Shown here: one piece after another, positions 1,366-58,773 of the stretch | Layout of the letters: each line of letters begins with the position of its first letter | Position numbering within the stretch: position 1 is the first letter of the stretch | NCBI GenBank assembly: GCA_010093745.1 | Contig: MU005977.1 | Coordinates: 1 to 64,000 of the forward strand | Direction: 5' to 3' | Length of the DNA: 64,000 bases | Origin: Piedraia hortae CBS 480.64 | Taxonomy: Eukaryota | Translations under genes and position numbers: made by a program | The notes under the pieces: generated by a model | Told to the model about the DNA's origin: nothing | Seen by the model: the letters and a program-made list of their open reading frames with translations, nothing else | Databases searched by the model: none

Positions 1366-3456
1366 CAATGCGGCCTATGCTCTTGAGAATCCCCCGCAGA
1401 GCTAGCGATGGCCACGGTACGGAGATCTGTTCACATGATCTTACTGCAATACTGACCTCTTGTTAGCCCAGAATGTTCCCTCAGCGGACCTCAATCTAGT
1501 GAATATAGGAATGGGAAGTGACATGAAAGACAATGTTGTTACTGCTACCCTTTTTCTAAGACTCTAGAGGAGATGAGGTTACTAGTCACCCTAGCCCTAT
1601 TGGGACTGGCTCCCGAGTAACATCAACAGAGCTTTCCTCATGATGGAAGTTTTATTGAGGAACTGCTAGTATAAGCTTGATGGCCGGTTCCGAGGCTGCA
1701 AGTCAGATTGAATATCTTCGAGACGTGAGGTGTCCTGACTGGAACATGGAAGCGCTGGCGCAACCCCTTCCCCATGTACGAATTTCGACAATGATTGAAA
1801 GAAGCTCATGATGAGTACGCATTGGATTGACCTCCATTGGCCGCATTGGAATCAGCAACTGATAAGGCATTTGGCGGCAGCTGTAATCGTAGCAATCATG
1901 TCAGCATCCTTCGCCATGGTGAGGCTCCACTTTGGATGTTAAGAGGACATCTTTCGCTTGCAAGCTTGCCAGGAACTCAGTCTCGCCGCCCAGCCAAAAC
2001 GCCCGCCTTTATCCGAATACCCATTAGGATGTTATTAGAAACAAAGTGGCAGCGCGAGAAATGTAGCGATATCATCCTTCGGTGGCATGGTTTGGTTTAT
2101 GCCACTGAGGTGAATGTTGCTTTGGGTAAGAAGAATAAGTCATTTGAAATTGATGTGTGCGAAGAAGATGCGCTAACGACCTTGGCCGAGGAATAGCCGC
2201 CTCGTGATGCATAAAACAATGGGGACTGTTCACACGCCAGTTCTGAACAGGCTACGCCAAATTTTGAGTACAGACTTCCCTTCTGAATAGTTCGACATGA
2301 TTGAACTTGGCTCTGGATCTGAAGATTGAGGTCGAGGCCTCTCAAGCATTTTACCTCCAAGGAGAAAATTTACCATGGGGTGGGTTACGGGACGGCCCTA
2401 CTTATGCTAGAGTTCGCGTTCAATGGCGTAGTCTCAGTCGATGCGGCTTATGTCGCATGATTGCATAGATCAGTGGGCTGCATGTGGGGAAAAGTTCGGT
2501 CCGTGCATCATAACAGGACGAACTGTGTAAGGTTCGATCTTCCGAACCTTTATTTTCCAGACCTAAGATTCAATCTCAAAGTTTTTCTATGGCATCTACC
2601 CATACCAACTTCTGATTGAACAGGATTCACAGTCGGGAAGTCATCTTTTTCTAGTGCGGCCCGGGAGGAGTCGTATCTTCATGACCTCGGCCTGGCCAGT
2701 GCTACTGTTTAGAAGATATGTGAGATAGAAGGCTGTGGAGAGCCTATGTAGCATAACGTCAAATCTAGCCTCTCATTCGAGTGCCAACCATCGAACTTGA
2801 AAGGACGTAACTTGGTAAAGAAAAACTCTGTTATCGGCTGTAGCTCCTTATTGAGGAATACTGCGGAGAGAAGTCGTGCACATAAATTGGCGAAACATTC
2901 TGGGAAAATCGGCTCACTTTGCCACAGCGATGGACAACGTTAGCGATGGTGGGGTCTATCGCAGGGAGGGAGAAGCTGGTGTGTTTCAAGTTGTCTGTTG
3001 ACACATCGAGGAATGCATTCTTTGCACCACACGAGCATTTGGAGGAGGCTGGAATGTAACTGACGTGGTGCTTCTTTATTTGACACGCTTCGGGCCCTGA
3101 TATGGAGAGATGTGGGCAGGTTCCCGTGGTTGGTCCTTTCCATCGTGTTTTCTTGCACACGTACAGCTGAGCCAGAGTCGCTGTTACAACACACCACAGG
3201 ACATATAGATAGATGATGAAGCAGAATGTCGGAATATGTGAGTTGGTTTTTTTGGTCTCTCCTTGCTGAACGCTGCATGCAGGTGGATCTGCTGAACTGT
3301 AAGACGTATTCAAAGTTCAACTGTATGCATACAGTATCAAACAGATATTCTCGTGGACAAGCTGAGATCTCAATGGAACATAGACTTCTCTTGCAAAAAT
3401 GATTTTGGAAGCGCGCACTAATAACACTAATTGTACAGAATCTCTTCACCATCTTA

Positions 3457-5776: not shown

Positions 5777-6453
5777 CTAAGTAGCTTTCGATTGTTTAAA
5801 CATCTCCTCCAGCTCTTGAATAACGTTCGTAGCGGACCAGTTTGGTCCCCTGTCTAACTCCAAAGTAAGAGCGAAAGCGCTGATTGAGTAAGTGGTGTAG
5901 AGATTTGGCTCTCGTGGGTGAGAGTGCGCAGCGACCCGAAGAGGACGGAGCGATAGACAGAATCAGGGACAGGAAAGATGTAGATGTATGTGAGTCAAAT
6001 ACCAGTTGCAGTATGGTAGTGTGAATGACTATTCTCTCATGTAAGGGGACGTCAGAATAAATATTCTGTGCCGGTGGGCCGGTGACGTCATGTCGTACAC
6101 TAGCAGGGCGTATTCACCATGTCACATATGACATGACCCTGAGGGAAAACCTCTGTGAGGGGAAAACCTAGGGTGCAGCTGGTAGTGTAGGAGGTATCGC
6201 TGACTTGCTATGCAAGTGCCCTGCACACGCGCTAGCGGCGATGCTTGAGTCCAACAAGTGGGACTTGAATGATCTTTCGACCCTTGAGAAGTTTCGGAAT
6301 GCTGCCGGATGAGGTCTTCTGGGGCTACTTAACTTCATGGAGGAGTCCGAAGGCGGCAACTGCTTGCACCAGTGGGTGGCGTTCCATGTCTTACGCATAA
6401 TTTTTGTGATGGATGATTTGAAGGAAGACGAGATCTTCCGCGAGGAAAAACAT
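5777..6453 (-). pseudogene. Orphan tandem-family copy 1, frameshifted and split by a solo LTR
   Basis: SSFKSSITKIMRKTW before the LTR and SISAFALTLELDRGPNWSATNVIQELEE after it match the intact paralog at 7040-7369. There is an extra T after the ATG, and the two halves are out of frame. Confidence 0.75.
5896..6256 (-). mobile_element. Solo LTR, family A (copia-like termini)
   Basis: TG...CA ends (minus strand begins TGTTGGA). 5-bp TSD AGTGG at 5891-5895 and 6257-6261. Four more copies in the window. Confidence 0.92.
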
Positions 6454-7039
6454 CTTGGTAGCTGAAGTGTTTGGTGGAGGAGAGGTATGTAATGGATGAA
6501 GAGAGGAAGTCGGAAGTTTACTTGACTGAGCGCCTGGCTCACATACTTGGCTCTGACTTTTCTCGGGTGTGATTTTTTACGTCACGTTTACTTGTATGCG
6601 CGCAGACTGGGTGAAGTTTGTTGTCGTGGGTGAAAAAGAAAACACGCAGCTTGGGCTGGGGAGTGATATGCTGTTCTTAAGTTTGAATTGTAATGGGGCA
6701 GTGGCCGCACAGTTGAGATGTGGTGTGAGAAATGATGGAATCAAGATGCGTATGCACGCGAGCAAAACGGAAAACCCCATTTGCGAGCAATAAATCTTGG
6801 CAAATCAGTCTCATCGACACAGCTAAGCTAGCTGGTACGCCCAGAAGCAATAACCTCTGACAATCTTGGAATCAGCGATGACTCCTTCGATACCACTCAA
6901 CCAGGTAAACGCAAGATTTTAATGTAAAAAGAAAGACCATCCGCACTTAGAACAGTTTGCATACAAACTCTCCTTAACAGACCGTTTATGCCCATTGCCC
7001 GCATTTCATTATCATAACCTGTTTGCACTTATTAACATT

Positions 7040-7369
7040 TTACCCCCGGATTCTGTCAATCGCCCCTTCTAGTTCTTGCATAATATTTTCTGTCGACCAA
7101 ACAGGTCCCATGTCCGAAAGCTGTAAAGTCAGAGCGGAAGCGCTGATTGTCGATGTCGTAGTTGATTCGGGTTTCGAAATTAGTGATGCTTCAAAATGCG
7201 AGACCTTCCAGGATGGGTCCTCTGCACTGATTGACTCCGGCGACGATGAGGTAGGGGACGATTCGTGAACAGGCGATTGCTTTCGCCGGAGGGTGGTGGT
7301 CCATGTCTTGCGCATAGTTTTTGTTATGGAGGACTTGAAGGAAGATGGAACATTTCGCAACGAAAACAT
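7040..7369 (-). CDS. Orphan small Ser/Thr-rich protein (109 aa), tandem-family copy 2
   Basis: Open frame MFSLRNVPSSFKSSITKTMRKTW...MQELEGAIDRIRG. Homologous coding and flanking sequence occurs in the neighbouring copies. Confidence 0.55.
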   Translation of the reverse strand: MFSLRNVPSSFKSSITKTMRKTWTTTLRRKQSPVHESSPTSSSPESISAEDPSWKVSHFEASLISKPESTTTSTISASALTLQLSDMGPVWSTENIMQELEGAIDRIRG

Positions 7370-8506
7370 CTTAGCAGCTTTGGTGTTTGATGGAGAAGAT
7401 GTGTGTTGTAAGGGAAAAGAGGAAGTCGAACTGTTGTGAAATGGAATTTTCAGCTCGTGAGGTTGAGGACGCAGTTTGGGCTGGGGCGTGACATGATTTT
7501 CTGAAGTTGTCATTTCGCACGCCCCTCTCATTTATACATACAGGCGAGATTATGCACTGTTCTATTGTATCTTCCTAATAGATTTCATTTCGGATTGATC
7601 ATCACGGGAACCAATCGAAGTCGAGATTGGTAGCTTTGGAGTGTACTAATTGAAAGGGTACACTCAACAGAGTTATAGATGAAGGCTGGTCATATATAGC
7701 CATCTTTGAAACGACTGTCTACGTCCATTCCATTTCCTCCCACTGGCAAACGCTGCACAGTGGCGTGCCAGATTTTTGATTTTCCATTATCCTGGAGGTT
7801 AGAAAAATGCTCCTGGAGGAGCGCCACAAATATAAAGCGAGAGTCGCGATCGCCGTCCGCACCACCTCCGACTCTTCCTGCAGGAGACCTCCCCCATCTA
7901 CCCCACCACCTCCTTTCCCTTCACCCTTCCCCTTCCCCTTCCCCGTTCCTCCAACCCCTCAGTCCCTCTGCGCTTTCCATTGCTAAGCCCGTGGAACTCT
8001 TGCTCATGGCGAATATCTAAGGACATCTTAGCCCCAGGGGTCACCTCTATGTAGACCTCTTCGGTCGCCTGGACACAAGTTGGCCAGCTCAATATCTCGC
8101 GCGTGGCTCTGCGAGAGATGGGATGAACAGCGTCAAAGCGGTACAGTATCACCTGCAGAGGCAGTGGGAAGACTATCTGGACCGCCCGTTCCTCTTGGTG
8201 GTTTCTTTCCACCTCCGCCACACCTCAATGCTCTTAAGCTTCCACCTCGTCTTATCTTTATATCGTGTTGCACCCTCCAGCGTCTTCACCCCTCATCCCC
8301 GCAAACACCTCCCCCAACTCCTTCATGATATCTGTATCGGACCAACCAGATTCCATGTCTGACAGCTCCAAACTATAAGCAGAGGAAATCGAAGTTGATA
8401 TGGTTTCCGACACTTGCGGTCCTTGAACATGCGAGCCTTCCCAGGATGAATCGTCTGAACTGCTCGACGGCGAAGACGATGAGACGGGTGATTTCTGAGT
8501 TTGAAA

Positions 8507-9184: not shown

Positions 9185-9365
9185 TATTATCACTGTTGTG
9201 GACAGAGGAAACAGCGATGAAAGAAAGACAACGCGACTGCCCGCCCAAGCCGGCGGGCGGAACTATGTACAAGAAACAACTAATCTATCAGCGACAACAA
9301 TGTCGATCATGCGATCGACATACCCCGAGGCACCGGCAAGGATTGACACTGGCCACCGCCTCGTA
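9185..9365 (+). repeat. Dispersed ~180-bp structured repeat, copy 1
   Basis: Closely matches the reverse complement of 50147-50320. Contains hairpins GCCCGCC..GGCGGGC and ATGTCGATC-N4-GATCGACAT. Confidence 0.85.
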
Positions 9366-14346: not shown

Positions 14347-14618
14347 TGTCGGAAGGAGGGAGTGATCCACTCACATCACTTCGAGTTTGGTGAATGCTGA
14401 CGCAGTCAACAGTGTGTGTGATATACCTCACTATGGAATCCGTCTGAGGTCTAGAAAAGGCTTGCGCCGCAAGACTGCTCTAGACTCTCTTCCCGGCCCG
14501 AACCGCATTCGCCGTGACAACGTTCTTTGACGTAATCACGCTCCAGGGGAAACATCCTCCATGAGGTAAAAGCCCTGGAGAGCTCGGTGCCCTATCTTCC
14601 TAAGGTAGGCGTCCGATA
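14347..14618 (-). mobile_element. Solo LTR, family C
   Basis: Ends TGTCGGA...TCCGATA. TSD AAGGC at 14342-14346 and 14619-14623. Second copy at 26275-26534. Strand inferred from the U-rich hairpin. Confidence 0.88.
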
Positions 14619-19699: not shown

Positions 19700-22600
19700 C
19701 CCATCGCAGTAAATCTCCTCTTTGAGTGTCACCAACCCATGGAAACGAACCCCAACAACCCATTGACGTTATTTCCACCAAAGCAGGGATGGTCCGACAC
19801 GAACACCAGCACCTGCATTGACGACAACAAAACCTCCAACACTTTCCCATCGACCCCTTCCAAAACGAACCCGTTCAATCTCACCTCATTCGCACCTCAA
19901 ATTACGACGCGCAAACGCACCATGAAGCTACTTCTTCAGCGTGTCGCAAGGAAGCTCAATCTAATCCTGCTATCGAAACACGCGACACTAACATCAGCTC
20001 TAAGCCAGTACAAATTGCCCTTATCGATACCTCCGGTCTCCGGCAACAACAAGCCAAGCTTGCCTGCTGGCTGAAGATGATTGACAGTCTCAACTCAACT
20101 CTCGCCTCGTTCTTGTATACTCAACCAGAGGCCGCACAACCACTAGCAGAGAAGCTGATTAGGGCCTCTCAAACAGTTGTCAATGAAGCCACCATCATCT
20201 CAACCCATAAGCCCAATGCGCCAACAACTCAACCGCATAAATATCTGACTGCGGAATAGGTGTTTACAAGTCTGCCGCAGCCATCCCCTGCGAAGAGGAC
20301 CCCTAGCGGCCCAGGAACAGATGATCCAAAGCAAACTTAGTCTCAAGTATTCCGCAAGTGTCCGAAGACTGACGACAACAGGCAGACAGAACCGAAACCG
20401 ACAGCAAAAATCCCATTCCCATCACATAAGACGGAAGAAAGTCGAACAGACAACAGAATCTTCGTTCGCCTCCGTGCGGACGATCCGAAACGAAAAGCTT
20501 ACAACCCCGCGATCAAAAACTCTCTCGTGGACTACGTAGGTTGCGGATTAGAATCGATCAAATATATTCAAACTGTCAAATCGGGTTTCGCACTTGTCCC
20601 GATCGACGAGCCTGCTCATACCTACCTGAATAGCCGTATGGCAGACATCTCGCATTTCTCCAAATGCCCCGTGGATGTTGGCACGCCTATGTCGTGAACC
20701 GCGTCCTCAAGTCACTCTGTGACTTGAAGAGCGAATCTATCCCAACAAAAACAGACATAGTCTTGGCAGATGCCACCCAGCGGGCAGGCACGAAGCTGCT
20801 CCAAGTAGAATGGTCCCGCTTTGAACAAGACGCAGACTCAGATTGTATGGTACTGCTCTCGTTCGGGCAGAGTGTCCGACCCTTCAACCTATTCGGAGTC
20901 AGTGCTCTCGCCACCCCTCTGCGACAAAAAGACAAGCTTGTACAATGTGATGCCTGCCATGAGTATCACCAGACCACCCGCGGCAGCCGGTCCAGAGTCT
21001 GCTCGCACTGCACAGGCCCGATACACGAGGGCGAGTGCTCAGGCCCCTCCTGCTGTTCGAACTGCCTAGATACTCATGATGCTCACGATCCAAAGTGTCC
21101 GGCAAGGCCAAAAAGAAAGAACGGCACTTTTGCCCCTGCGTCACGAAATCTTCTCAAATCAATCCGGAGCAACAACCGCGATGTTAGACACGCCAAAAAT
21201 AAGGAAGGATTACCCAGTTAAACTACTACTCAAGAAACACACGAATTCTAGTCGACTCAGCCGGATGAAACCCCCGGCCCAGATGTGGAATCATCCATGG
21301 ACACCTCAACTGCTTAGTGTCGAGTACAACCGAAAGGAACCGCTGCTTATCCCAACACGACCGAATTGTCTTCCTGCTGCAAGCGAACGTGCAGCAGTCC
21401 TAATCATGACCTTGCACTCTCTCATGGCGCATCGATTGGCACCTCCATACTTCTGGTGCAGGAGCCATGGAGTATGTTCGACAGAACCAGCCAGGTATTT
21501 CTCACCAAAACCCACCTCGACTATACCCTATTCATACCTCTTGGCGAGGAACATCTCAAAACGAGGGCCGCGACCTACATTCTCAAACCGTCCGGCTTGA
21601 GAATGTATAGCGCCCCTAGGCCCTCGCGGGACATCGTTTGGGTCAAAGTGTCGGGGCACAGCGACTTGCTGGACACGGTTAATGTGTACCGGCACGCTGG
21701 CACGCGCGCCCCACATCTCATTCACCAGCTACAGTCTGCAACTGGCGCCTTCCCCTCGAGAATTATCATGGCAGGCGGTTTCAACCTGCGCTCGAGGCTG
21801 TGGGAGCCAGGAGCCAGCAATACCGCTGAGGCACGGCTTTTTGCAGATTACGAACTAGGTACGTCTACAGAGACGGCGACGAAGAGGTACTCAGGGAAGC
21901 GTACCCCATCCGCCCGCTGCCTGAGGTGACACTCGAACCTAGCTCCATCGACGAGCTGGCCACTGCTCTCATTAACAACAACAAAAGCGCCATGGAAGCG
22001 TCGATACCGAAGAGAAATCTACAGGCGAGACGACGTACGCCTTGGTTGAACCAGAAGTGCAATAATGCCCTAGTGGACCACAACACATTGCTGAGGGCGG
22101 GAGCTGGACAGGACAATCGACGGCAAGATAGCCTTACGAGCCGCAGTGAGACGTTCCAAGCAACAATTCCGAACCAGACATATTGAAATTGCGACAGAAC
22201 AGAGCACCTCTGGAAGGTAGCTGGCTGGCGTAAGCCCAAGCGCCAAGCGGGTAACCCTCCAATACAGGACGGTAAGTTCAGTGCAACCACTCCAGCTGAA
22301 TATTGTGCGCTCCTCAAGGTCGAGCACTCTCGAACGAATATCCGCCCCCGACGATGTTCCGGCATGGGATACACCGTCTGTACCCTGTCGGTCTATCCCC
22401 CTTGACTCGGAAATCACCGCAGCCGAGGTCGGGCAGGTCACCATTGGCAATAGTGGAAACATGGCCCCGGGAGAAGATGGCATCACGATAAAGGTCTTGA
22501 CTGTTCTCTGGGACAAGCGGGAGGAGGGAGTCACTACATTGTTCCGAGCTTCACTGAAAATGGGGCACTTCCTCAAGCCCTTCAAAACGGCGGAGGTTGT

Positions 22601-24198
22601 CATGCTGCCGAAGCCTAACAAAGATCCAAGGACCACAAAGGGCTGGCGCCCGATATCGCTACTCTCAAGTCTGAGCAAAGGCCTAGAAAGAGTGCTCGCC
22701 AAAAGGGTGGCCTTCCTCGCGATTGATCCAGGAGTCCTGCACGAGCAACAATTCGGCACGCTCCCAAAGCGGTCCCCTGGCGTGCCTTTCAAACGACCCT
22801 AATCACACATGCTACCGAGACTGAGAGAACAAGGCTGGCCCGCATTTTCCGTCAACTGGACCGGATCTTTCATGACCAAAAGGGCATGCAGCGTGCGTCT
22901 GGGCGGACACACGACACAATCAGCTCCCTTGCAATGCGAATTGCCTCAAGGCTCCCCTATATCCCCTATCCTATTCCTCCTTTATGTTCAACCGATAGTT
23001 GAAAGATGAAGCAGTTTCAGCTACGCGGACGATATCGGAATCCTCACCACCAGCCATGACACCACTCAGGCCTCAGAACTGCTGAGAGCTGAATAAGAGG
23101 AAATTGAATCATGGTGTGACCAAATGCCATCACTCTTGAGCCGGGCAAGGCGGAGCTGATTCGCTTTTCGCGAAAGCGCGTGCGGCAGACGCCCTCGATC
23201 GATATCGGCAGAAGGGAGGTCCATCCCATCGAGGCTCTAAGATGGCTAGGGGTGTGGCTAGACCCAGCACTGACCTTCAAGCACCACATCGATACGTGGG
23301 CAGCAAAGGCTAGGCACTTCCTCCGCTCGCTCTCAAATACACAGAGAGGAATCCCCACAGCTAAAGCTCGATTGGCAGTCACGGCATGCGTGCTCACACT
23401 ACTCACATATGGCATGGAAGCTTACTAGCCGGGCCTCGCCCGGAGCATCGGCGACCGCCAGGTCGGGACGGACATGAAATCCCAAGTTTCGAAATTGGAT
23501 AGAGCCCTTCGCTCCTCACCGACCCATCGTACCCTGTTGGAAGATCACCATCACAGTCGAAGGCCAGGCCCCAGACCACCTTCACTCTCTCGCACATTAG
23601 GCGCATTGCTTGGGTATCGCACGTGGGGCCTCTGCGAGTATGGTGACAGGAAATGCACATAGGTCATACCAAGACCTCGCAATCTGTATCTCGACCAAGC
23701 CGCCGAAGGAACTACAACTCTCGCGCCCCGCTCTGTCTCATCTTGTTGCATGCAAAACCGGTCACGGCGATTTTGCAGACTATCACAAACGCTTTGATCA
23801 CCCGACGTACCCCGGCACTGCTCCTGCGGCGCCGTGAAGACGCCGACACACTTTTTCTTCTCCGAGGAGGGCCGCAGGTAGTCAGGGGCGCTGAGATGCT
23901 CAGACCACCGTCTGGACGTTTTGTGGGTCCTTTCGACCGCAGACAGAGCTCAGGCCTTCCAGCTGTTCCTCAAGCACACCAACCTCTTCAACTCTGTGTG
24001 CCCACAGCGCCAGCTGCCAAGTCAAGACGAGATGGCCGGCCGTAACGCGCAGGAAGACAAAGGATATTAAGCTCATGAAAGGATAGGTGGGATTGGTAAG
24101 GTAGCTTATACCCTGACCGCGGGGTTTAACCCGCCATCTAGCGCCCAATAAGGACATAGACGTAAAATGCAGGAAAAAAAAAAGAAGGAAAAAAAAAA
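19700..24198 (+). mobile_element. Degenerate Tad1-like LINE (non-LTR retrotransposon)
   Basis: ORF1 Cys/His knuckles (QCDACHEYH..CSHCTGPIH..CSNCLDTH, 20664-21221). APE endonuclease (ILLVQEPW, MAGGFN). RT (APGEDGIT, WRPISLLSSLSKGLE, LPQGSPISPILFLLY, YADD). C-terminal TGHGDFADYH. A-rich tail 24174-24198. Many stops and frameshifts; 5' boundary approximate. Confidence 0.93.
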
Positions 24199-25667: not shown

Positions 25668-26029
25668 TGTCGAGATTTGGCTCTCGTGGGTGAGAGTGCA
25701 CAGCGACCCGAAGAGGACGGAGCGATAGACGGAATCAGGGACAGGAAATATGTAGATGTATGTGAGTCAAATACCAGTTGCAGTATGGTAGTGTGAAATC
25801 ACTATTGTTTTAATGAGGGGACGGTCAGAATGAAAATTCTGTACCGGTGGGCCGGTGACGTCACGTCGTACACTAGCGGGGCGTATTCACCATGTCACAT
25901 ATGACATGACCCCGAGGGAAAACCTCTGTGGGGGAAAAACCTAGGGTGCAGCTGGTAGTGTAGGAGGTATCGCTGACTTGCTATGCAAGTGCCCTGCATA
26001 CGCGCTAGCGGCGATGCTTGAATCCAACA
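25668..26029 (-). mobile_element. Solo LTR, family A
   Basis: TG...CA ends. TSD GAATA at 25663-25667 and 26030-26034. Confidence 0.92.
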
Positions 26030-26274: not shown

Positions 26275-26534
26275 TATCGGAAGGAGGGAGGGATCTACTC
26301 ACATCACCTTAACATCGTTGAATGGTGACGCAGTCAACAGTTTGTGTGATACCTCACTATGGAATCCGTCTGAGGTCTAGAGAAGGCTTGCACCGCAAGA
26401 CTCTCTTCCCCACCCGAACCGCGTTCGCCGTGACAACGCCCTTTGACGTAACCACGCTCCTGGGGAAACATCCTCCATGAGGTAAAAGCCCTGGAGAGTC
26501 CGGTGCCCTATCTACCTAAGGCAGGCGTCTGACA
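26275..26534 (-). mobile_element. Solo LTR, family C
   Basis: TATCGGA...TCTGACA. TSD TCCCT at 26270-26274 and 26535-26539. Similar to 14347-14618. Confidence 0.88.
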
Positions 26535-29169: not shown

Positions 29170-29312
29170 GTTGGCGTTGAGAGCGAGGTGCGGTGGTGGT
29201 GACGTAACACATCGGCTCGTCTAACTTGCCTTTTACAGCACAACGCGCCTCCACGTGTGTTGCGACGCGTCGCGTCTGTAACAGAGATCCGGAAGGGGCA
29301 CGATGCGGACCA

Positions 29313-32300
29313 ATGAAATCGTGGAGAGTTAGAGGAGAGGTAGACGACTCTGAGGATGAGGATCTTGCATTGTCGTTAGAGGAGGAGAAGAACCAGCCGT
29401 CGGAGCAGGATATTGAATCAAATGAGGTTGTAAAGAGCCAGGATTTTGACAAGACTGAGCATGTGAGAGTATTACATGGGCTGGAACGGGTGGATGAGGA
29501 AGGACAGAAGGCTGAAAACGAAGAGCCAAACGTTCAGAACGAGGACGATCGGGCTGCCAATGGAGCAGAGAAACAAGTTGAAAGTGAAGACGCCCCGGTG
29601 CAGGCAACTGAGACACAGCCAATGGATCCAAGACCACAACGAAAACCAGTCATCACATATGGGCGAAAATCCAGGGCTAAAAAAGCCAAGCAGGTCAAGA
29701 AAGAGGTCGTTCAGACTGAACCAATATTGGAAGACGACAGATATCAGAAGCCTGAATCTGACTCCCCTCGGGCTGAAATCTCCGTACATAGCGTGCCATC
29801 CAGCAATCCAGATGATCTGCCCAATCTCAGCCAGTTGATCACCGATCCAGCCACTGTAGCCGTACCAGAGGTGACAGTCTCCAGCCCTCTGTCCTCCTTG
29901 CCCAGCGTTTTTGGAGCTCGATTGCCAGTCCAACCGGAGGGGGGGGATGACATTGCAACCGCAGTCTCTGTCCAGCTGCCAGCTGCTCCTGACACTGCCC
30001 GAGCACAGACTTCCCTCACCGACCTGAAACTGGCTCAGCAGTTGCAGTCAGAGGGTCCAGAATATGCAGGGAGGAGACTGCGTGAGCGGACAGAAAAGCA
30101 GCTGCATCCCTATGTTTATTACCGGCAGATATACCAAGAACAATGGCGTCAGCGTGGACTTCGACCTGTCAATTTTATTATCGAGGAGCCTGCGAAAGAG
30201 ACCCAAGACCAGCCATTCGACGAAGAAGCTGGCCAGTCTCCGAGTCAGAACAGCCAACAGTCTGGTTATTCAGATCTGGGAGATGAACTTCAGCTCTTGC
30301 AGAACAGACAGAGCTCAACTGGACAGGCCAGAACGAACCAGAATCATGGCCCAAGACAGCCAACCGCCCGCGAATCTTGGGCACTACAGCTTGGCAGGAA
30401 AAAAAGAAAGGTGTCCGGTCCGGGTCGTCTGAAAAGTGCAACCACTCGACGGAGTCCAAATGGTCCTCCACAGGCTCATCGGAGTAATCTTTCCAATGCC
30501 GTATCTCACGGAGCGCAGGAGATTGCCAACGAACTCCCTGACGACCCTGCACCTTTTGAAGAATTTCCCCGGCCCATGTCCCCACCATTGACCTGCAGTA
30601 TCCCTGGGAGAATTGCACCTGCCCGAGTGCTGCCAACAGGTTTCATCATACCAGCTGGAGGCAGTCCTCCCCCTCTCCCAACTCCAGGTGTATCCTCAAG
30701 CATCCGTCCCAGACGCAGTTCAGCAGAATCATCAGTCCTGGACTCGCCCTTACTCCAATTTCAAATAGACCAAGAGGGGCCAAAGCCAGAGGTGATTGAA
30801 CTGAATAGTGATCCAGTATCAGAGCACGAACTCGAGGCTGGAGATCAAATGCTGCAGCGAGAGCAGAAGCGTATCAAGTATGTTCTCCCAGCGTCGTGGC
30901 TTAAGATCGATTGTGAGGCCCAGAAGAGACGATTGGATCGTCTTTCGAATCTTCAAAGAAGGTCTCGGACATCTATGGGGCAGCAACAGAGAGGGGTGGC
31001 TAGAAAGGTGAGGAGGCCATCAGGTGCTCATCGTGGGACGAGCCCGCTTCCGGTGTTAGTGGATGATGGTCCCGTTTCGCCGACACCGTCCTCACCTCCT
31101 TTATCAAGTGTGTTCAGAGCGTCGCCTTCGATGGATCTGGGAACGCCGTTGGCTGTCAGGACGTCACCGCAGCGGGGGAGTCTGTCTTATTCTGCTCATC
31201 CGCGCGGAGCCATCAGCTCCGCTGGCAGAGGTGGTGTGGCAGCATCTGAATCTGTCTCCCCATCTAGCTGGAGAGCTCTTGTAGTTGACCGGGTCAGAAG
31301 TTTGAACACGGGCCAAAGAAGAGCTAGAAATGAAAACCTAGTCCAGCAGAGGGTCAGGAATGACCAAAAGAAACCCGCAAAGCCAAGACAGCGCGCACCA
31401 GACTCCCTTGCGGTGAGACCGAAGAAGAAAGGAGGATCCACTGCCCACCGTCAAACTCGCCTAAACTTCGAACCACGACCAGCAGAAGCAGAAGTTGCTC
31501 CAAGTAGTAGGGCTGCCCAATCTAAGCGGTCTCGCTATCGAGTTGAGCCTCCACCGCTCCGCGTTCGCAACGCACAACTGGAGACATCGGAGCAAGCCTT
31601 CAACAGAGACCATCGCACTGCTGCGTTCAGAAGACGAATCAACACCCTGACCGAAACCGTAGCTCGTCCCAGCCGTCGTCATGATCTGCCGCTTGAGCGT
31701 TTCCTCGATGAAGATGCCGCAGACCCTCTTCCACACTCCCCTGATAGTGGCGGGACGCCCGCCCCAACGAACTTCCCCTCGTCCAGTCCAGCAATGGACA
31801 TTGGATCGCTGGAACATCCAGTAGAACTCGACAACGGGATCTCCACAACAGCCCCAACACTTCAAGGCCTTTATCCCTTCAACACCCCCTACGCGACCGA
31901 CTTTGGCATCCATCCCCTACCCATGGGCACAAAATTCCCCCCCGACACTTTCCTCGGAAGCGGTGACTTTGCCGCAGCCCTGCAACTCACCGAGCGGGAC
32001 ATGCGTGTCGTTGGCGGAAAAATGAATGTCTGCATTGGAAACGCTACGCTCGAATGGGGCGCGTGGACCGAAGACGTAGCTGCTGCTAATGCACGAATCC
32101 CTGGTGGGATTTTCGAGGCGTTTTCTACTTTGCTGTCTCATGATCAGGGGAGTACGTTTGAAGAGCAAAAGAGACTGGTTGCAGAGAATGTGGAGTATAT
32201 GCTCCGCTCGGTGATACGGTATTGCTCAAAGTGTATGGCTTTTCTCGATACTGTTGACAGAAGGTCCGCGGTGCTGTCTCTGCAGCGGTTAATCGAGGAT

Positions 32301-35198
32301 ACTGCTGAACATGTTGCAAGTTTTGAGCTTGATGGGGGGTTGAGGACGAAGTGTTGGGAGTATCTGCTCGTGCTTGCTACGCAGACAAGACTGTTGTCTA
32401 ATGATGATGTTGTGCCGGTGGAGATGCAAAGGAAGAGTAAGGAGTTGAGGGGCATGACTGAGGCTGAATTGGCAAAGGCAATAGTGCCGCAGTGTTTTGC
32501 ACATTTGCGCTCGCTTCAGAGTGGGGGTTTTGATGCGAGTGTGTCTGCTTTGGTCGTTCTTTATCACTGTCTGGAAGACAGCGGTTCCTTCTGGGATGTA
32601 CTGGCCGGAGCGATGAGCATCAATGTTGACAACACATACTCCATTGCAACTCTAGACTTTCACTGGCGCAACATCTTCACCCTCCTCCCTGTACTGGAAT
32701 TCGACGCCCAAGGACAAGTCCGCGTCGGGAGCAGATTCTCCTCGCTGCAGCAAGGCTGGTCATTAATCACCCCTCTCCTTGCACGGGTATTCCAACTCTA
32801 CCCACCCACAAGCTCTCTACCCGGCAACACAGTAAACGACTACATCCGCGCCGTGTTTGCCAGATGTGCCCATCTCCAAACGCAATGGGGCTGGTGCAAA
32901 ACCGAAGGAGTCCTACCTCTCATCTTCGACTTCTACGCCCACCGCTTCCTTTCCCCCTTAAACCACGAAGAATCACCCACCTCCCCACCCTTCCTCTCTG
33001 AAATCGAATCAAACCCCCCACTCGACGTCCGACCTGAAGACCGCTCCTTCCACATCTTCCTCAAAATGCTCGCCACCTCTTTACACGCAATGCGAAAATA
33101 CTCCATCTTCACCGAAAAAAAAATCCTCTCCAAAGCATGGCGGTATATGCCCATGTGGGAGGTAAAACCAGGCAATACTTCCGCTCTGCGGAACCACCAT
33201 GACTTGCTCTCAACCCTCTACGTCGCCTCCCCGTCAGGCCATCGGCCGAGATTCAACCTCTTCCAGAAACTCGTCGACTTCTCGACCGCCTCGAGGGAGG
33301 ACTGTAGGATAAGCCTCCGCGCGTGGGCGACTGTGACGTCTTTCCAAGCCTCGAGGGATGAAGGCTGCGAAGCCCTGGTACAATTCGCCGATGCGTTTCG
33401 CGATAGTGTAACTACAACTGTGACTCGCTACCGCGCAGCGAGGGATGATGAGGGCAAGAGACAAGTCGCGAGTATACTCCTCGACGCGATGATATCCATG
33501 AAACGAACCATCAGAGCATGTCGCACTAGCGAAGCTGTTATCCTCCTCTTATCAAACACAAACCTCTGGTCGCCGTTCACACCATTTGACGCCACAGAGC
33601 GGAAACTGCATAGTGTCCTCGAAACAGCCCTCGACGTGGTCTCTACCGCGCTAGCCACCCAACCGGCTGCGCCGGTGCATCAAGAAAGCGAGGAGAGCCA
33701 GGATTACGGCGATATCGCCGTCGTTGAAGAGCTAGCCGCGATGCAACTTGCCAACAACCACCTTAGCACTAACATTGCCACGCACATCCACGACCCAATC
33801 AACAAACTTTTACTAAACGTCTTCGGCGCGGAAGAGCCAGTTCCGGAATATATCCTCTCGACGCTAGTCACGCTCTGGGTCCAAATTGCGCGAAGCGGAC
33901 ATAAACCAATGGAAACGTACCTCGATAATTACAGTTCGCACTCGTGGCTCCAGCTACGTGATACGGAGCAGAAAAGAAAATTCACACCGCTCTTCGTGGC
34001 AAGGGTGGTGGACTCCCTCCCCTCTATTCCCGAGGGAGTCATCTCTATATGGCTGACATCCCTCGTCGAGCGCGAGGCGAAGCTGAAGTTTCAACATGTT
34101 CTGACTACATCCCTCCTAACCCATCCTAAATCTTGGACGGAGACGATCCTACATAACCTTCCCTTCACGGGGAGAAGCGTCACACTTTCGGAACTGCGGC
34201 AGAGACGGATCCCCCTTCTAGGTGCGGTCTTACAGAATATCGCTGCATTAACTCAGCGGAGCATGTCTCCTCCTCTCCGCGCAATGCAGAATGCTATGAA
34301 GAATAACTTCCTCTCCCTCGCTCCTAATCCCCAAGGGGGGAGTAGATATATCCCCTTCTTACACCAAATTATTGCGCTGCTGAGGGAGAATCATCTCACT
34401 GTTGACCCCTTCTTTCTCGATCCGGGGTGTTTTCCGCTTCCGGAGGAGGATCCGGGGTTTGTGACTTCAAGACTTAGGGGGTATGCCAACAGGATTGGCA
34501 ATTTTAGTGTGAAGAAGCAATTTGCGGTTTTTGTCAGGACGGTTGTTACGAGGGAGGTTGTGGAACAGGAGGCATGCTGCGCGGGGCAGGTTGCTGCTGC
34601 ATTGCGGGGAGAAAGGATGGAGGGTGTGAGGGGTGTTTTTTGGGGGGTTGTGACTGCGTATGTGGAGGTGGAGGAGGTGGGTGTGCTGCGGAATAAGGTG
34701 ATGCAGGCTGCGGCAAAAGTGATGGGGGGGTTGAGGTATGAGGATTATTGGAATTGGGAGGGCATTTTTGGTGCTCTCAGGTGTTTGGGCGGGAGGGAGG
34801 TGAGCACTGGTGGCTGGGAATTTGCGGCTGCCTCGCTTACGCTTGTTGAGTTTTTGAGGAGGGCGAGGGGGGTGTTTGATGACAGAGTTTGGGGGGTTTT
34901 GTTTCGTTTGAGGGGCTTGGCTGAGGGAAGAGTGATGTCGCAGATGGAGGTTGGTGAAGAGGAGAGTGAGTTCAAGGCTTTTGTGAAAAAGGAGTTGATT
35001 ACTGCGATCAAAGAGGATTGGATTGTTGTAAATGGGAAGACGAAGGTTAGGTTGGGGAGGGTATGGAGAGATGTGCCTCCTGAAAATGAAGAGGAGAAGG
35101 AGAGGGCGAAAGGGAGATATATTGCTACGTATGATAGGATTGTGAAGGGGAAGAGTGGGAGGAAGGGGGCTGGGGTGTTGATGGGTGGGCTGGTTTAG
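29313..35198 (+). CDS. MMS22: Mms22/Mus7 family replication-stress repair protein
   Basis: Intronless ~1960-aa ORF. MKSWRVRGEVDDSEDED, RLRERTEKQLHPY, KRIKYVLPASWLKID, IFDFYA..LNHEE..PFL, FHIFLKML, LRNHHDLLSTLY, SLVEREAKLKFQH. Confidence 0.85.
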   Translation: MKSWRVRGEVDDSEDEDLALSLEEEKNQPSEQDIESNEVVKSQDFDKTEHVRVLHGLERVDEEGQKAENEEPNVQNEDDRAANGAEKQVESEDAPVQATETQPMDPRPQRKPVITYGRKSRAKKAKQVKKEVVQTEPILEDDRYQKPESDSPRAEISVHSVPSSNPDDLPNLSQLITDPATVAVPEVTVSSPLSSLPSVFGARLPVQPEGGDDIATAVSVQLPAAPDTARAQTSLTDLKLAQQLQSEGPEYAGRRLRERTEKQLHPYVYYRQIYQEQWRQRGLRPVNFIIEEPAKETQDQPFDEEAGQSPSQNSQQSGYSDLGDELQLLQNRQSSTGQARTNQNHGPRQPTARESWALQLGRKKRKVSGPGRLKSATTRRSPNGPPQAHRSNLSNAVSHGAQEIANELPDDPAPFEEFPRPMSPPLTCSIPGRIAPARVLPTGFIIPAGGSPPPLPTPGVSSSIRPRRSSAESSVLDSPLLQFQIDQEGPKPEVIELNSDPVSEHELEAGDQMLQREQKRIKYVLPASWLKIDCEAQKRRLDRLSNLQRRSRTSMGQQQRGVARKVRRPSGAHRGTSPLPVLVDDGPVSPTPSSPPLSSVFRASPSMDLGTPLAVRTSPQRGSLSYSAHPRGAISSAGRGGVAASESVSPSSWRALVVDRVRSLNTGQRRARNENLVQQRVRNDQKKPAKPRQRAPDSLAVRPKKKGGSTAHRQTRLNFEPRPAEAEVAPSSRAAQSKRSRYRVEPPPLRVRNAQLETSEQAFNRDHRTAAFRRRINTLTETVARPSRRHDLPLERFLDEDAADPLPHSPDSGGTPAPTNFPSSSPAMDIGSLEHPVELDNGISTTAPTLQGLYPFNTPYATDFGIHPLPMGTKFPPDTFLGSGDFAAALQLTERDMRVVGGKMNVCIGNATLEWGAWTEDVAAANARIPGGIFEAFSTLLSHDQGSTFEEQKRLVAENVEYMLRSVIRYCSKCMAFLDTVDRRSAVLSLQRLIEDTAEHVASFELDGGLRTKCWEYLLVLATQTRLLSNDDVVPVEMQRKSKELRGMTEAELAKAIVPQCFAHLRSLQSGGFDASVSALVVLYHCLEDSGSFWDVLAGAMSINVDNTYSIATLDFHWRNIFTLLPVLEFDAQGQVRVGSRFSSLQQGWSLITPLLARVFQLYPPTSSLPGNTVNDYIRAVFARCAHLQTQWGWCKTEGVLPLIFDFYAHRFLSPLNHEESPTSPPFLSEIESNPPLDVRPEDRSFHIFLKMLATSLHAMRKYSIFTEKKILSKAWRYMPMWEVKPGNTSALRNHHDLLSTLYVASPSGHRPRFNLFQKLVDFSTASREDCRISLRAWATVTSFQASRDEGCEALVQFADAFRDSVTTTVTRYRAARDDEGKRQVASILLDAMISMKRTIRACRTSEAVILLLSNTNLWSPFTPFDATERKLHSVLETALDVVSTALATQPAAPVHQESEESQDYGDIAVVEELAAMQLANNHLSTNIATHIHDPINKLLLNVFGAEEPVPEYILSTLVTLWVQIARSGHKPMETYLDNYSSHSWLQLRDTEQKRKFTPLFVARVVDSLPSIPEGVISIWLTSLVEREAKLKFQHVLTTSLLTHPKSWTETILHNLPFTGRSVTLSELRQRRIPLLGAVLQNIAALTQRSMSPPLRAMQNAMKNNFLSLAPNPQGGSRYIPFLHQIIALLRENHLTVDPFFLDPGCFPLPEEDPGFVTSRLRGYANRIGNFSVKKQFAVFVRTVVTREVVEQEACCAGQVAAALRGERMEGVRGVFWGVVTAYVEVEEVGVLRNKVMQAAAKVMGGLRYEDYWNWEGIFGALRCLGGREVSTGGWEFAAASLTLVEFLRRARGVFDDRVWGVLFRLRGLAEGRVMSQMEVGEEESEFKAFVKKELITAIKEDWIVVNGKTKVRLGRVWRDVPPENEEEKERAKGRYIATYDRIVKGKSGRKGAGVLMGGLV

Positions 35199-35569: not shown

Positions 35570-35954
35570 TGTTGAACTCAAGCATCGCCGCTAGCGCGTA
35601 TGCGGGGCACTTGCATAGCAAGTCAGCGATACCTCCTACACTACCAGCTGCACCCTAGGTTTGTCCCTCTCAGAGGTTTTCCCTCAGGGTCATGTCATAT
35701 ATGACAGGTGAATGCGCCCTGCTAGTGTACGACGTGACGTCACCTGCCCACCGGTACAGAATTTTCATTCTGACATCCCCTCATAGAAATAGATAGTCAT
35801 TCACACTGTCATATCGACACTGGTATCGACTCATATACATCTACATCTATCCTGTCCCTAATTCCGTCTATCGCTCCGTCCTCTACGGGTCGCTGCGCAC
35901 TTTCACCCACGGGAGCCTAAATCTCTACAACCCACGGGAGCTAAAATCTCTACA
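35570..35954 (+). mobile_element. Solo LTR, family A, with a tandem duplication of its last ~25 bp
   Basis: Starts TGTTGAAC. Ends ..ATCTCTACA twice (35929 and 35954). TSD CAAAA/CAAGA. Confidence 0.9.
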
Positions 35955-43657: not shown

Positions 43658-43880
43658 TGTTGGATCCAAGTATCGCCGCTAGCGCGTATGCGGGGCACTT
43701 CCATAGCAAGTCAGCAATACCTCCTACACTTCCAGCTGCACCCTAGGTTTTTTCCTTCACAGAGTTTTTCCCTCAGGGTCATACTATATGTGACATGGCG
43801 AATGCGCCCTGCTAGTGTATGACGTGACGTCACCGGCCCACCGGTACAGAATAAATATTTTGTACCGGTGGGCCGGTGGC
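43658..43880 (+). mobile_element. Truncated family A LTR ending in a fold-back inversion
   Basis: Starts TGTTGGATCC and matches family A for ~195 bp, then reads back as an inverted copy (43831-43878). Confidence 0.88.
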
Positions 43881-43883
43881 GAC

Positions 43884-44175
43884 TGAAGAAATATGGAGGT
43901 GGTGAACTAGCGCAGCGTCATGTGCAGTATGGATTTCGGATTATTCGGGTTAGGAAAAGGTGTGTGAGGCACATATATGCGTGGCTGGGTGTGTGTATGT
44001 AGGTGTTGACGTGAAGTGGTGAGGTGAAGTGCGAAAATTCACCTCACACTAAACCAGGCCTAGCCGCATTTACCGAAACCACGTCACCGAGCACGCACCG
44101 AGCATGAATGGCACCGTGCTTCGTCCCAGGGGAAACTTCCTCCTATGGAGGTAAAAACCCTGAAAGGCATCGACA
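43884..44175 (-). mobile_element. Probable solo LTR, family D
   Basis: TG...CA bounded ~290-bp segment holding the same U-rich-loop hairpin (44127-44162). Single copy; TSD ambiguous (GCGAC/TCGAC if it ends at 44169). Confidence 0.45.
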
Positions 44176-44605
44176 TCTAAGCTCGCAGTTGCGACCTGGC
44201 TGCATACTATATGAGAGTGTTTACAGTCTCACACTTGCTTCTACGCATTTGTGTTGCTTTAATGTCGAATGATGATGGTTAATGAGATCCAATCGCGACT
44301 GCAACGAAACTCGCCTCAAAATTAGTTATCGGATAATTTTATCTATTTCGTGCTAGTGATAACCTACAAGTATGAGATATACTGCAATGGGTAGGCCATT
44401 CAAATTCTTATCGAGTGGCATCACTATGCAATTGTATTTCCCCTATGAATTGTTTGTGCCGGACATGTTGTCTAACTGGTGCTAAGTAGTTGGGAAGGTG
44501 TGTAGGGCTCCATTAGTGACATTGATTCTTCCGTTGTTCATCATTACAGTCTTGAGGATGCAAGACCTTAAATCCAACCACTCACAAGCATATGTGACAA
44601 TGCTG

Positions 44606-44979
44606 TGTTGGCATGAAGTCTCGTTGCTATCAGTGTACGATGCCACTGCGCGACACCTCTTACACCAGCAGCTGCACCCTAGGTTTTGTCCTCACAGAGG
44701 TTTCCCTCAGGGTCATGTCGCATGCGACATGACCAATGCGTCCTGCTACTGTTTGAGGTGAGTCAGGGAGTAAGACTGCATGCTGACAGTCTTACTGCAT
44801 GTATAACCTCTTGCTTACGGTCATACAATTGATGACTCTTCATACGAGGCTACGCACGGGTCTTCCAGCCCAGAATATATTCTCTGATGTTCCCTCGAAG
44901 ATATACTTGTATTCACTCATAAAACACATCTCTACTTTCCATCCATCGTTCTCACTCATACATACTATCTGTCTTTTCA
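44606..44979 (+). mobile_element. Solo LTR, family B
   Basis: TGTTGGCA...TTTTCA. TSD TGCTG at 44601-44605 and 44980-44984. Inverted copy at 51898-52268. Confidence 0.92.
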
Positions 44980-49631: not shown

Positions 49632-49993
49632 TGTAGATATTTAGCTCTCGTGGGTGAGAGTGCACAGCGACCCGAAGAGGGCGGAGCGATAGACGGAATC
49701 AGGGACAGGAAAGATGTAGATGTATGTAAGTCAAAATACCAGTTGCAGTATGGTAGTGTGAATGACTATGTGTCTCAATAAGGGGACGTCAGAATGAAAA
49801 TTCTGTACCGGTGGGCCGGTGACGTCACGTCGTACACTAGCGGGGCGTATTCACCATGTCACATATGACATGACCCTCAGGGAAAACCTCTGAGAGGGAC
49901 AAACCTAGGGTGCAGCCGGTAGTGTAGGAGGTATCGCTGACTTGCTATGCAAGTGCCCTGCATACGCGCTAGCGGCGATGCTTGAATCCAACA
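49632..49993 (-). mobile_element. Solo LTR, family A
   Basis: TG...CA ends. TSD TCTAT at 49627-49631 and 49994-49998. Confidence 0.92.
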
Positions 49994-50146: not shown

Positions 50147-50320
50147 TGTACGAGGCAGCGGCTAATGTCGATCCTTGCCGGTGCCTCGGTATGTCGATCG
50201 TATGATCGACATTGTAGTCGCTGATAGATTAGTTGTTTTTGTACATAGTTCCGCCCGCCGGCTCGGGCGGGCAGTTCTGCCTTTCTTTCATCGCTGTTTC
50301 CTGTCAACACCAGTGATAGA
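50147..50320 (-). repeat. Dispersed ~180-bp structured repeat, copy 2
   Basis: Reverse complement of 9185-9365. Confidence 0.85.
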
Positions 50321-51190: not shown

Positions 51191-52372
51191 CTACCACGTT
51201 TCATTCTCTTCTTCGTCCTGAATATCAACCTCCATAATCAACCTCGCTTCCTCTTCCTGCGCCGCAGTCGGCGGCAATCTAATCCCCTCCTCCCTCTCCC
51301 TCAACTGCATCAACACAACCATAATGATAACTTGCCACACAACAACCGCAAGTGTAACGACAATAATCCACCCCGCAACCGAACGATGTTCTCTCCTCCA
51401 CGGGCCAAGTCATTCTCTGCCCTCTCTCTAGGGAAACATCACAACACAGGCATCACTACCGTGGCTTCGGTCTGGAAATGGCCAGACCATATCTCGCGGG
51501 ATGGTGAGACCACAACACAAAAACGCATCCTGCACAGTGCGGATAGCAGCCGCATTCCTGTCGTGGAAGAGCTCTTGCCAGCGCTCGCGAATTAAGCAGT
51601 CGCTGCCGTGGATTTTTTTTGGCCCGCTAAGGGTGATTATAACGGTTTCATAGTTGAGTAAGATGGCGAAGAGGACGGCGTCGCGGATGAAGCGGCGGGT
51701 GGGAAGCTCACTTGCTTCGCTGCTTCGTGATCTGCAATGGGGAGTGGTTCGTATGATGGTCCTATTCAGGGCTACAATAACTGAGGCGAGGAAGGGAAAG
51801 ATGATTGATAGCGCGGGAAGAGCTCGGGAAATGACTAAAGAGTTGAGTGGAGTTTTTACAGAGGGTAGGAGCAGAGAAGGCTAGAGGAGGAATGAAGTGA
51901 AAAACAGATGGTATGTGTGGATGAGACGATGGATGGAGAGTAGAGATGTGTGTATGAGTGAATACAAGTGTATCTACGTGAGGACATCAGAGACTATATC
52001 CTGGGCTGGAAGGCCCGTGCGTAGCCTCGTATGAAGAGTCATCAACCGTATGACCGCAAGCAAGTGGTCATACATGCAGTAAGACCGTCAGCATGCAGCC
52101 TTACTCCATGACTCACCTCAAACAGTAGCAGGGCGCATTCACCATGTCGCATGCAACATGACCCTGAGGGAAACCTCTGTGAGGACAAAACCTAGGGTGC
52201 AGCTGCTGGTGTAAGAGGTGTCGCGCAGTGGCGTTGTACACTGATAGCAACGAGACTTCATGTTGGCATGAAGTACTTGATTCAGAGTCAGTGAGTATAT
52301 ACTCTATGGTTATCGACGACCAACTGCTATGCTCAAGACGAGAATGATCAGCTGGGGTTTGGAAAGAGCCAT
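51191..52372 (-). pseudogene. Tetraspanin Tsp3-like pseudogene split by a solo LTR (not in the ORF track)
   Basis: Manual translation gives CLIRERWQELFHDRNAAAIRTVQDAFLCCGLTIPRDMVWPFPDRSHGSDAC..*..*LGPWRRE followed by a TM helix. CCG motif present; two in-frame stops. Putative exon 1 MALSKPQLIILVLSI lies beyond the LTR. Confidence 0.8.
51898..52268 (-). mobile_element. Solo LTR, family B, with a terminal micro-inversion
   Basis: Reverse complement of 44606-44979. TSD TGAAG at 51893-51897 and 52269-52273. Confidence 0.9.
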
Positions 52373-58379: not shown

Positions 58380-58773
58380 GATGAGCGGTGCGCAGTCTGG
58401 GGCTGAAAGGGGTTCTAAGGCGGCCAATCACGGGCGTTCGTCTTCGCTACTCTGCCCAGAACACGACAGTTGCGAGATGCACCTTTAGTTCCGATTAAGA
58501 TTCCCCTCAGCTCATCCTCCCGTGGCTGCCCCGTATGTGCGTACTTTTTCCAATGCTCCACTTTCCCGTTCCGTTACCGCCCAGCCTCCTTGAACGGCAG
58601 GGACCGGTGACATGTAGTGGGCTGAGCATGCAGCCCGTAGCCGAGGGCTAGCTCGAGGCGGATGTATAAGGTAGTGGCAGAAGACGTATTGCGAGTTCCC
58701 CCCTCAATTTTCTTTTTCTCGGACAGATCCTGATCCAGCTATCTAAGCTGGGTCTGATCGCAGATAGACCGAG

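Follow-up and report, generated by a model that had tools for sequence, protein, structure and literature searches.

More than 200 ENE-type elements have been predicted, including elements in plant and fungal transposons, and about 10 of them had been tested by 2020 (PMC7583470). According to the sections of the literature compared here, the ENE of the KSHV PAN RNA forms five U.A-U triples and three A-minor triples (PMC7583470), some transposon ENEs sit inside 5' and 3' LTRs, and double ENEs possess an adenosine triad and a pocket (PMC13541005). The same sections describe the ENE of Evade (Arabidopsis Copia93) as located between the ORF and the LTR and containing four U-tracts, with flanking G-C pairs that are essential; it raises RNA stability and transposition, and this in-host test of a transposon ENE was done in a plant (PMC12501189). 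Copia and Ty5 are described as priming at the anticodon loop of a tRNA (PMC10886601).

The motif described here lies in the LTRs of Ty1/copia elements of the fungus Piedraia hortae CBS 480.64. With the plant and fungal transposon ENEs (Tycowski, Shu and Steitz 2016; as covered in PMC7583470, PMC13541005 and PMC12501189) it shares a U-rich internal loop between short stems and a location in a fungal LTR retrotransposon, and the lower domain of double ENEs has a bulge-interrupted stem as does the lower stem of our LTR families A, B and C. It differs from them in being a single domain of ~40 nt without a second U-rich loop, and in having an abutting hairpin and a GYRAAUGCG word, both of which are absent from the review descriptions compared. 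The KSHV PAN ENE is similar in its one U-rich internal loop, the G-C pairs below it, the upper stem and poly(A) as the third strand proposed for our motif, but its five U.A-U and three A-minor triples stand against 3–4 possible triples here, and the upper stem-loop of our motif is much shorter. As far as it is described in the part compared, the Evade ENE resembles the motif in belonging to a Ty1/copia element, in a 3' UTR position that is likely for our motif as well, in the G-C pairs beside the U-tracts and in the proposed block of deadenylation (PMC12501189). MALAT1 and MEN-beta also have the U-rich internal loop but, in the accounts compared, use a genome-encoded A-rich tract and RNase P processing. 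The anticodon-loop-primed copias (Drosophila copia, yeast Ty5), as covered there, show the same order of gag, protease, integrase and RT and the same 5-bp target duplications. No publication on this LTR motif was found in literature searches whose reach excluded most subscription papers. Fungal-transposon and intra-LTR ENEs have already been published, so the motif opens no new class and is, as judged from the review descriptions compared, likely a further ENE of an already reported sort; the accessory module formed by the abutting hairpin and the conserved word is possibly new.

The window, the whole stretch of 64,000 nucleotides that was analysed, belongs to a 16.9-Mb genome in 132 contigs and carries fungal-type genes (MMS22, DCP1 and a peroxidase-P450 fusion). 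The last of these is a haem peroxidase-P450 fusion ORF at 58768-62223 (+), which we take to be linoleate diol synthase-like. The window also contains a decayed LINE-like element at 21318-23117 with an endonuclease domain (PF14529) and an RT match with stops, and a dispersed repeat of ~180 nt at 9188-9365 (+) and 50149-50318 (-), whose two copies are 88% alike; it has a GC-rich palindrome and is not a family that bears the ENE-like motif.

A preliminary description of this DNA had reported a 39-nt motif at 6136-6174, which is indeed present on the minus strand with 0 mismatches to the sequence as written there; at up to 3 mismatches it has 3 matches versus 0.00 expected from 100 shuffles. The architecture proposed at the same time, a lower stem, opposed U-tracts, an upper stem and a 3-nt loop, equals the minimum-energy fold, in which an 8-bp lower stem with one bulged C is followed by a 6x5 pyrimidine internal loop and by a 4-bp upper stem with an ACA loop (Table 1). 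The energy of this predicted fold is -12.5 kcal/mol (z -2.2), and 4 of 200 shuffles were equally stable. Folding of the single hairpin does not discriminate the strands (minus z -2.2, plus z -1.5), and with 136 nt of context the antisense strand folds better (z -3.3 vs -1.25). A scanner for the architecture alone found three sites in the window, each of them inside one of these LTRs; the mean for 100 shuffles was 0.01. The two Rfam hits at 5800-6400 (E 5 and 7.4) do not exceed chance, and on five loci of other LTR families no Rfam model reached its gathering score.

Table 1. Predicted parts of the motif at 6136-6174 and motif-bearing LTRs in the window (positions in the window).
Feature	Position	Strand	Remarks
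ENE-like hairpin	6136..6174	(-)	nt 83-121 of family-A LTR; sequence and fold
Lower stem, 5' arm ACCCUAGG	6167..6174	(-)	GG closes U-rich loop (predicted A-minor stem)
Internal loop, 5' strand UUUUCC	6161..6166	(-)	fold
Upper stem CCUC/GAGG with ACA loop	6150..6160	(-)	fold
Internal loop, 3' strand UUUUC	6145..6149	(-)	fold
Lower stem, 3' arm CCU-C(bulge)-AGGGU	6136..6144	(-)	fold
Second hairpin CAUGUCA-UAUG-UGACAUG	6118..6135	(-)	directly abuts lower stem; fold
Conserved word GGUGAAUACG	6109..6118	(-)	after second hairpin
Outer stem, 6179-6189 with 6096-6106	6096..6189	(-)	closes predicted three-way junction; families A and B only
Family-A solo LTR, Ty1/copia	5896..6256	(-)	361 nt, TGTTGG..TCTACA; TSD AGTGG at 5891-5895 and 6257-6261
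Family-A solo LTR	25668..26029	(-)	TSD TATTC; motif 25909-25947, upper stem broken, folds differently
Family-A LTR	35570..35929	(+)	3' tip duplicated; motif 35652-35690, 5' U-tract interrupted (UUUGU)
Truncated family-A LTR	43658..43852	(+)	motif 43740-43779, U-tracts longer, upper stem weaker
Family-A solo LTR	49632..49993	(-)	TSD ATAGA; motif 49873-49911, 5' U-tract interrupted (UUUGU)
Motif, family-B LTR (about 44606-44979)	44676..44713	(+)	covariance model
Motif, second family-B LTR (51898-52262 matched)	52161..52198	(-)	scanner, covariance model
Diverged motif, LTR family G	44123..44166	(-)	5-bp upper stem, unbroken 8-bp lower stem
Diverged motif, LTR family H	14540..14581	(-)	lower stem CUCCAGGG/CCCUGGAG
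Family-H motif	26456..26497	(-)	in 260-nt LTR 26275-26534, AGGGA on both sides
Weak, decayed motif-like match	2339..2381	(+)	18.2 bits

The distance of ~80 nt from the 5' end of the LTR given in the preliminary description agrees with the complete TG..CA LTR, and the four further positions named there all hold real copies, although they are unequally intact and three of them are damaged. Beyond that list we found five more clear copies in other LTR families (the rows for families B, G and H in Table 1). A covariance model, which was trained partly on the window copies it then found, gives 10 clear copies (families A, B, G and H) and one weak match. Solo LTRs would not transcribe their own U3. 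Since the family-A copies of the window, including the one at 6136-6174, sit in solo or truncated LTRs, they probably persist as relics that stay silent except where a host gene is transcribed through them. The LTR at 35570-35929 is located 372 nt downstream of an MMS22-like ORF on the same strand (29208-35198), and a long 3' UTR of this gene could read into the motif there. Two further arrangements were seen next to these LTRs: a direct repeat of 158 nt with 76% identity (6355-6512 and 7272-7428) beside the LTR at 5896, which is possibly a local gene duplication, and, at 43658-44220, the truncated family-A LTR, which terminates in a short inverted duplication (43821-43881) and directly adjoins one end of a family-G LTR of opposite orientation.

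From the genome we collected 221 instances in 10 LTR families (A 74, E 56, B 49, D 19, F 8, G 8, H 3, I 2, C 1, J 1), a set drawn from the loci examined and biased toward the best matches, with one or two copies each for C, I and J. Genome-wide, an A/B-type pattern matched 200 times and its reversed control not once; for the other types a looser pattern gave 237 matches versus 20, some sites being counted twice. Copy numbers derived from the patterns and from first-look candidates are 403 for A, 366 for B (overlapping), 211 for E and 52 for D, and judged by these figures related motifs occur in the hundreds throughout the genome. When 20-nt windows were slid along a family-A LTR and compared with one LTR from each of the nine other families, only those starting at nt 81-111 clearly beat the reversed controls (mean 8.9-11.8 vs 6.4-6.7; 6.1-8.0 elsewhere). 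By this measure the motif is the sole part of the family-A LTR that scores over background against most other families. The LTR of family E has 306 nt, with exact duplications in 23 of the 34 copies in which both ends were found, and in one motif-bearing family the LTR sits behind a copia whose RT/RNase H identity is 32-36%.

The motif was not found in a copia family with ~125-nt LTRs, the owner of most of the 37 PBS hits, and it is therefore not needed by all copias of this genome; nor was it found in the gypsy-type loci tested. Among 80 metagenome copias (33-43% identity) the scanner gave 0 hits in 303,233 bases and the best model hit had an E of 0.16, these elements being either too distant or without the motif. 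Viral contigs held no relatives by protein or pattern search, and no pattern match to the motif was seen in prokaryote genomes. Many PBS hits of the ~125-nt-LTR family (L291-L319, L064, L065, L067) lie at contig ends, which suggests recent, near-identical full-length copies that were collapsed in the assembly. At another locus (L283, G000:C1:519178-519832) 650 bases contain five copia PBS words, every one of them preceded by its own short stretch ending in CA, and this locus looks like a pile of truncated element starts. LTRs nested in one another, often chimeric, were common among the loci examined; a family-E solo LTR, for example, is inserted in the RNase H region of a family-B copia (L031:3170-3478, minus strand). 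One family-A LTR (L085, G000:C19:254846-254923) holds four tandem copies of the motif's 16-nt core unit.

The sense of the LTR could be read from coding sequence. Among 20 reverse-transcriptase regions examined, one full-length element carrying family-A LTRs was present (L061), with the order LTR, GGTTATGAGCCC PBS, gag (PF14223), protease-integrase-RT (PF22936, PF00665, PF07727), purine tract and LTR, all on the strand that begins TGTTGG. From its domain order L061 is a Ty1/copia element, and its PBS is presumably of the half-tRNA-iMet type. The preliminary description had read the LTR with the TGTTG end first, and with PBS and PPT located the U-rich strand is the coding strand of L061; sense is thus assigned to the U-rich and not to the A-rich strand by gene structure, not by RNA, and for family A by this single full-length element. 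The two LTRs of L061 are 88% alike, belong to different family-A subtypes and are without a matching target duplication. Its gag and pol (L061:3453-7604, minus strand) share one frame and are separated by a single TAA, which is either a mutation or a read-through signal. Family B, a sister copia family whose RT/RNase H is ~70% identical at the amino-acid level, has the same sense, with RNase H followed by a purine tract and then the LTR at three loci. The single copy of family C, which lies downstream of a decayed copia RNase H, agrees with this, as do one family-D copy preceded by a purine tract and another LTR (L288) that has the PBS of L061 after it; these assignments of sense cover families A to D. 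Exact 5-bp target duplications surround 23 of the 30 best family-A loci, and therefore most of these copies are solo LTRs. Two family-A LTRs on contig C96 were considered as one element and rejected, as the first copy has its own target duplication. The LTRs thus show the TG..CA ends, 5-bp TSD, flanking gag-protease-integrase-RT, PBS and polypurine tract of Ty1/copia. Judged from these sequences, a motif predicted to form a hairpin is conserved on the coding strand of the LTR in one clade of fungal Ty1/copia elements.

In families D to J the 8 bp of the lower stem follow one another without a break, and in A, B and C a bulge interrupts the stem. Its outer pairs change from family to family between U-A, C-G, U-G and G-U/G-C forms with pairing kept, as seen in the arms of family E (UCUCAGGG/CCCUGAGA), H (CUCCAGGG/CCCUGGAG) and F (UCGCAGGG/CCCUG(U/C)GA) and in the U-G pairs of D and G. 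For the pairing counts 206 of the 221 copies were parsed and 15 dropped, the inner four pairs served as anchors, and for A, B and C we fixed the bulged registers by hand. When the commonest pair state of each family is counted in this way, G-U comes up at 11 positions and A.C at one, which favours pairing on the U-rich RNA strand; the 11 G-U states share ancestry, and we estimate ~6 events against 1 (p about 0.06). A raw MAFFT alignment of 16 rows, several of them out of register, showed no covariation above shuffles (196 of 500 reached the number of paired cells and 230 of 500 the score). In eight in-register rows, picked afterwards from the 16 for being in the MAFFT register, three pairs changed on both sides and the covariation of 0.217 was reached by 1 of 500 shuffles, which related sequences can beat; slid registers of the same subset gave 0.007-0.113. 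Stem covariation is thus visible in the eight-row subset and in the anchored counts but not in the raw alignment, and across the families we regard it as suggestive, not decisive. The upper stem is nearly invariant in sequence and therefore uninformative on pairing.

In a context of ~165 nt the nested fold reaches a median predicted probability of 0.97 in A, 0.96 in B, 1.00 in E, 0.94 in D, 0.99 in G and 0.84 in H, and it loses in F (0.05), I (0.10) and J (0.15). In A, E, G and H these stems are also predicted for the antisense strand (0.82-0.98), and with both strands folding in several families the thermodynamic comparison of the strands is uninformative. Within families, shared variants were not significantly rarer inside the motif in A, B and E (p 0.55, 0.34 and 0.076), with variant columns numbering 7/39 in the motif vs 76/316 in the rest for A, 1/38 vs 28/337 for B and 5/41 vs 69/264 for E (rows kept: 58/72, 43/46 and 50/54, respectively).

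As to membership in the ENE class, the predicted folds show an internal loop that is rich in U, with U-runs on its two strands and flanked by two stems, and G-C pairs close this loop on its lower side, so that at the level of sequence the features of a single-domain ENE are present; an ENE architecture had been proposed in the preliminary description. In most of the 221 copies the U-tracts are 4-5 and 3-4 long. Allowing a one-base slip, four stacked U.U oppositions are counted in 49 of 65 parsed A copies and 43 of 54 parsed E copies, and three in 46 of 49 B copies; the ENE descriptions compared name no lower limit for the number of triples. The 5' strand of the internal loop varies among the 65 parsed family-A copies (UUUUUC in 30, UUUUUG in 13), and the loop of the upper stem differs in length and sequence from family to family. 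At the two innermost pairs of the lower stem G-C is the commonest state in 10 of 10 families, these positions being anchors as well, and in the unanchored alignment the middle G-C pair occurs in 16 of 16 rows. Every family fold has one U-rich loop, and not the two of a double ENE. A run of at least six A follows in the LTR in 1/74 A, 0/49 B, 0/56 E and 4/19 D copies. A blunt-ended ENE of the MALAT1 type was rejected, as A-runs are nearly absent downstream, no tRNA was called in the window and Rfam gave no match beyond chance at 5800-6400 or on the five loci of other families. Because most copies are without a genomic A-run downstream, the poly(A) tail would have to serve as third strand.

The motif starts 50-83 nt from the 5' end of the LTR in families A, B, D and E and ~38 nt from it in one family-H copy, the one at 26456-26497. 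It likely lies in U3, since 38-83 nt from the LTR end leave too little room for an upstream promoter. TATA-like words occur in a minority of A copies at nt 200-240, and near nt 260 they are present in 38 of 46 B copies. In family E, 44 of 54 copies have a TAGATA word at nt 20-40, which precedes the motif and counts against certainty on U3. As such words lie upstream of the motif in E and occur in only a minority of A, they do not map the promoter. Contigs of one sequencing run (X1), possibly RNA-derived, gave neither start nor end sites and, among the rows listed, no loose poly(A) end, and speak neither for nor against the model. A position just upstream of the poly(A) site, as given in the preliminary description, found no support: 240 nt of family-A LTR follow the motif, and the poly(A) site is probably located ~150-240 nt downstream of it.

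From this combination of features we regard the motif as a likely ENE of a compact, single-domain form, placed in the 3' UTR of the copia element RNA. According to this model it would be copied from the 3' LTR only and so enter the 3' UTR of the element RNA. The tail would then fold back, the two facing U-runs would clamp the poly(A) in 3-4 U.A-U triples, and A-minor contacts may form on the G-C pairs below the U-rich loop. Such a clamp would slow deadenylation and thereby stabilise the element RNA.

The motif is accompanied by further elements. A second hairpin abutting the lower stem is predicted in 9 of 10 families with unrelated sequence and varying length, its median z being -1.9 to -3.9 in nine families and +0.6 in family I (up to 12 copies per family). 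It is followed by a word with the pattern GRYRAAYRCG (GYRAAUGCG), which occurs in 171 of the 221 copies, with every one of the 10 families represented, at a distance of 50-90 nt from the anchor that varies with the hairpin length, and whose RAA is mostly predicted to be unpaired.

An ENE does not need this larger conserved unit, and one might thus propose that the 3' UTR contains an RNA structure with a different task, e.g. binding of a protein or Gag, packaging, choice of the 3' end, export or help in strand transfer, and that the U.U loop has a structural part in it without binding poly(A). This reading is also in line with the covariation and the G-U excess, which all support an RNA stem and not a triplex, and with U.U oppositions that number only 3-4. 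However, what persists as loops and flanks are replaced is the two U-runs with the G-C pairs beside them, this set matches the described ENEs, and a 3' UTR position in the RNA of an intronless, polyadenylated retroelement fits an ENE, so that we regard a different RNA role as unlikely.

The strand bias of the pairing bears on an explanation at the level of DNA. LTR enhancers reside in U3, and the motif could be an enhancer element made up of two head-to-tail, half-palindromic G-T4-C sites for a host factor, the hairpin shape being a by-product. The halves of family A are near-direct repeats (median local score 10), L085 holds the 16-nt unit four times, the near-invariant CCTC/GAGG and the downstream word could be sites read as sequence, and the antisense strand folds about equally well in several families. 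But in B and D to I the halves are not direct repeats (median 5-6) and the nested 8-bp stem is nevertheless kept with changes on both sides, a bias for G-U over A.C on the coding strand is unexpected for double-stranded DNA sites, and the spacing from half to half differs between families, which makes the enhancer reading improbable in our view. That the motif has no function, its shape having arisen by tandem duplication and its block having been spread between families by LTR recombination, would agree with the tandem amplification that does occur in L085, with the often nested and chimeric LTRs of this genome and with variants that are not depleted in the motif within families, but it is highly improbable given that the block is retained in ~ten families whose remaining LTR parts do not align, that one carrier family sits behind a copia as distant as stated above, and that the sequence changes preserve pairing.

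Returning to the compact ENE, a more far-reaching version would treat the hairpin and its neighbours as a composite subclass, in which a minimal clamp of 3-4 triples is reinforced by the abutting hairpin and the GYRAAUGCG strand and kept across the copia radiation, with solo LTRs acting as cassettes for stability plus poly(A). We consider this version doubtful. If it were true, the GYRAAUGCG strand could cap or dock the end of the tail, and the solo LTRs, in their hundreds, would offer portable cassettes for stability plus poly(A) to host transcripts that read into them, e.g. that of the MMS22-like gene.

If the simpler assignment is true, P. hortae would possess a compact fungal ENE together with a natural series of ~ten variants in one genome, spanning 3 or 4 triples, a bulged or unbroken lower stem and extra purines at the top of the loop. 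With this series it could be possible to test the minimal size of a working ENE and the contribution of the neighbouring helices.
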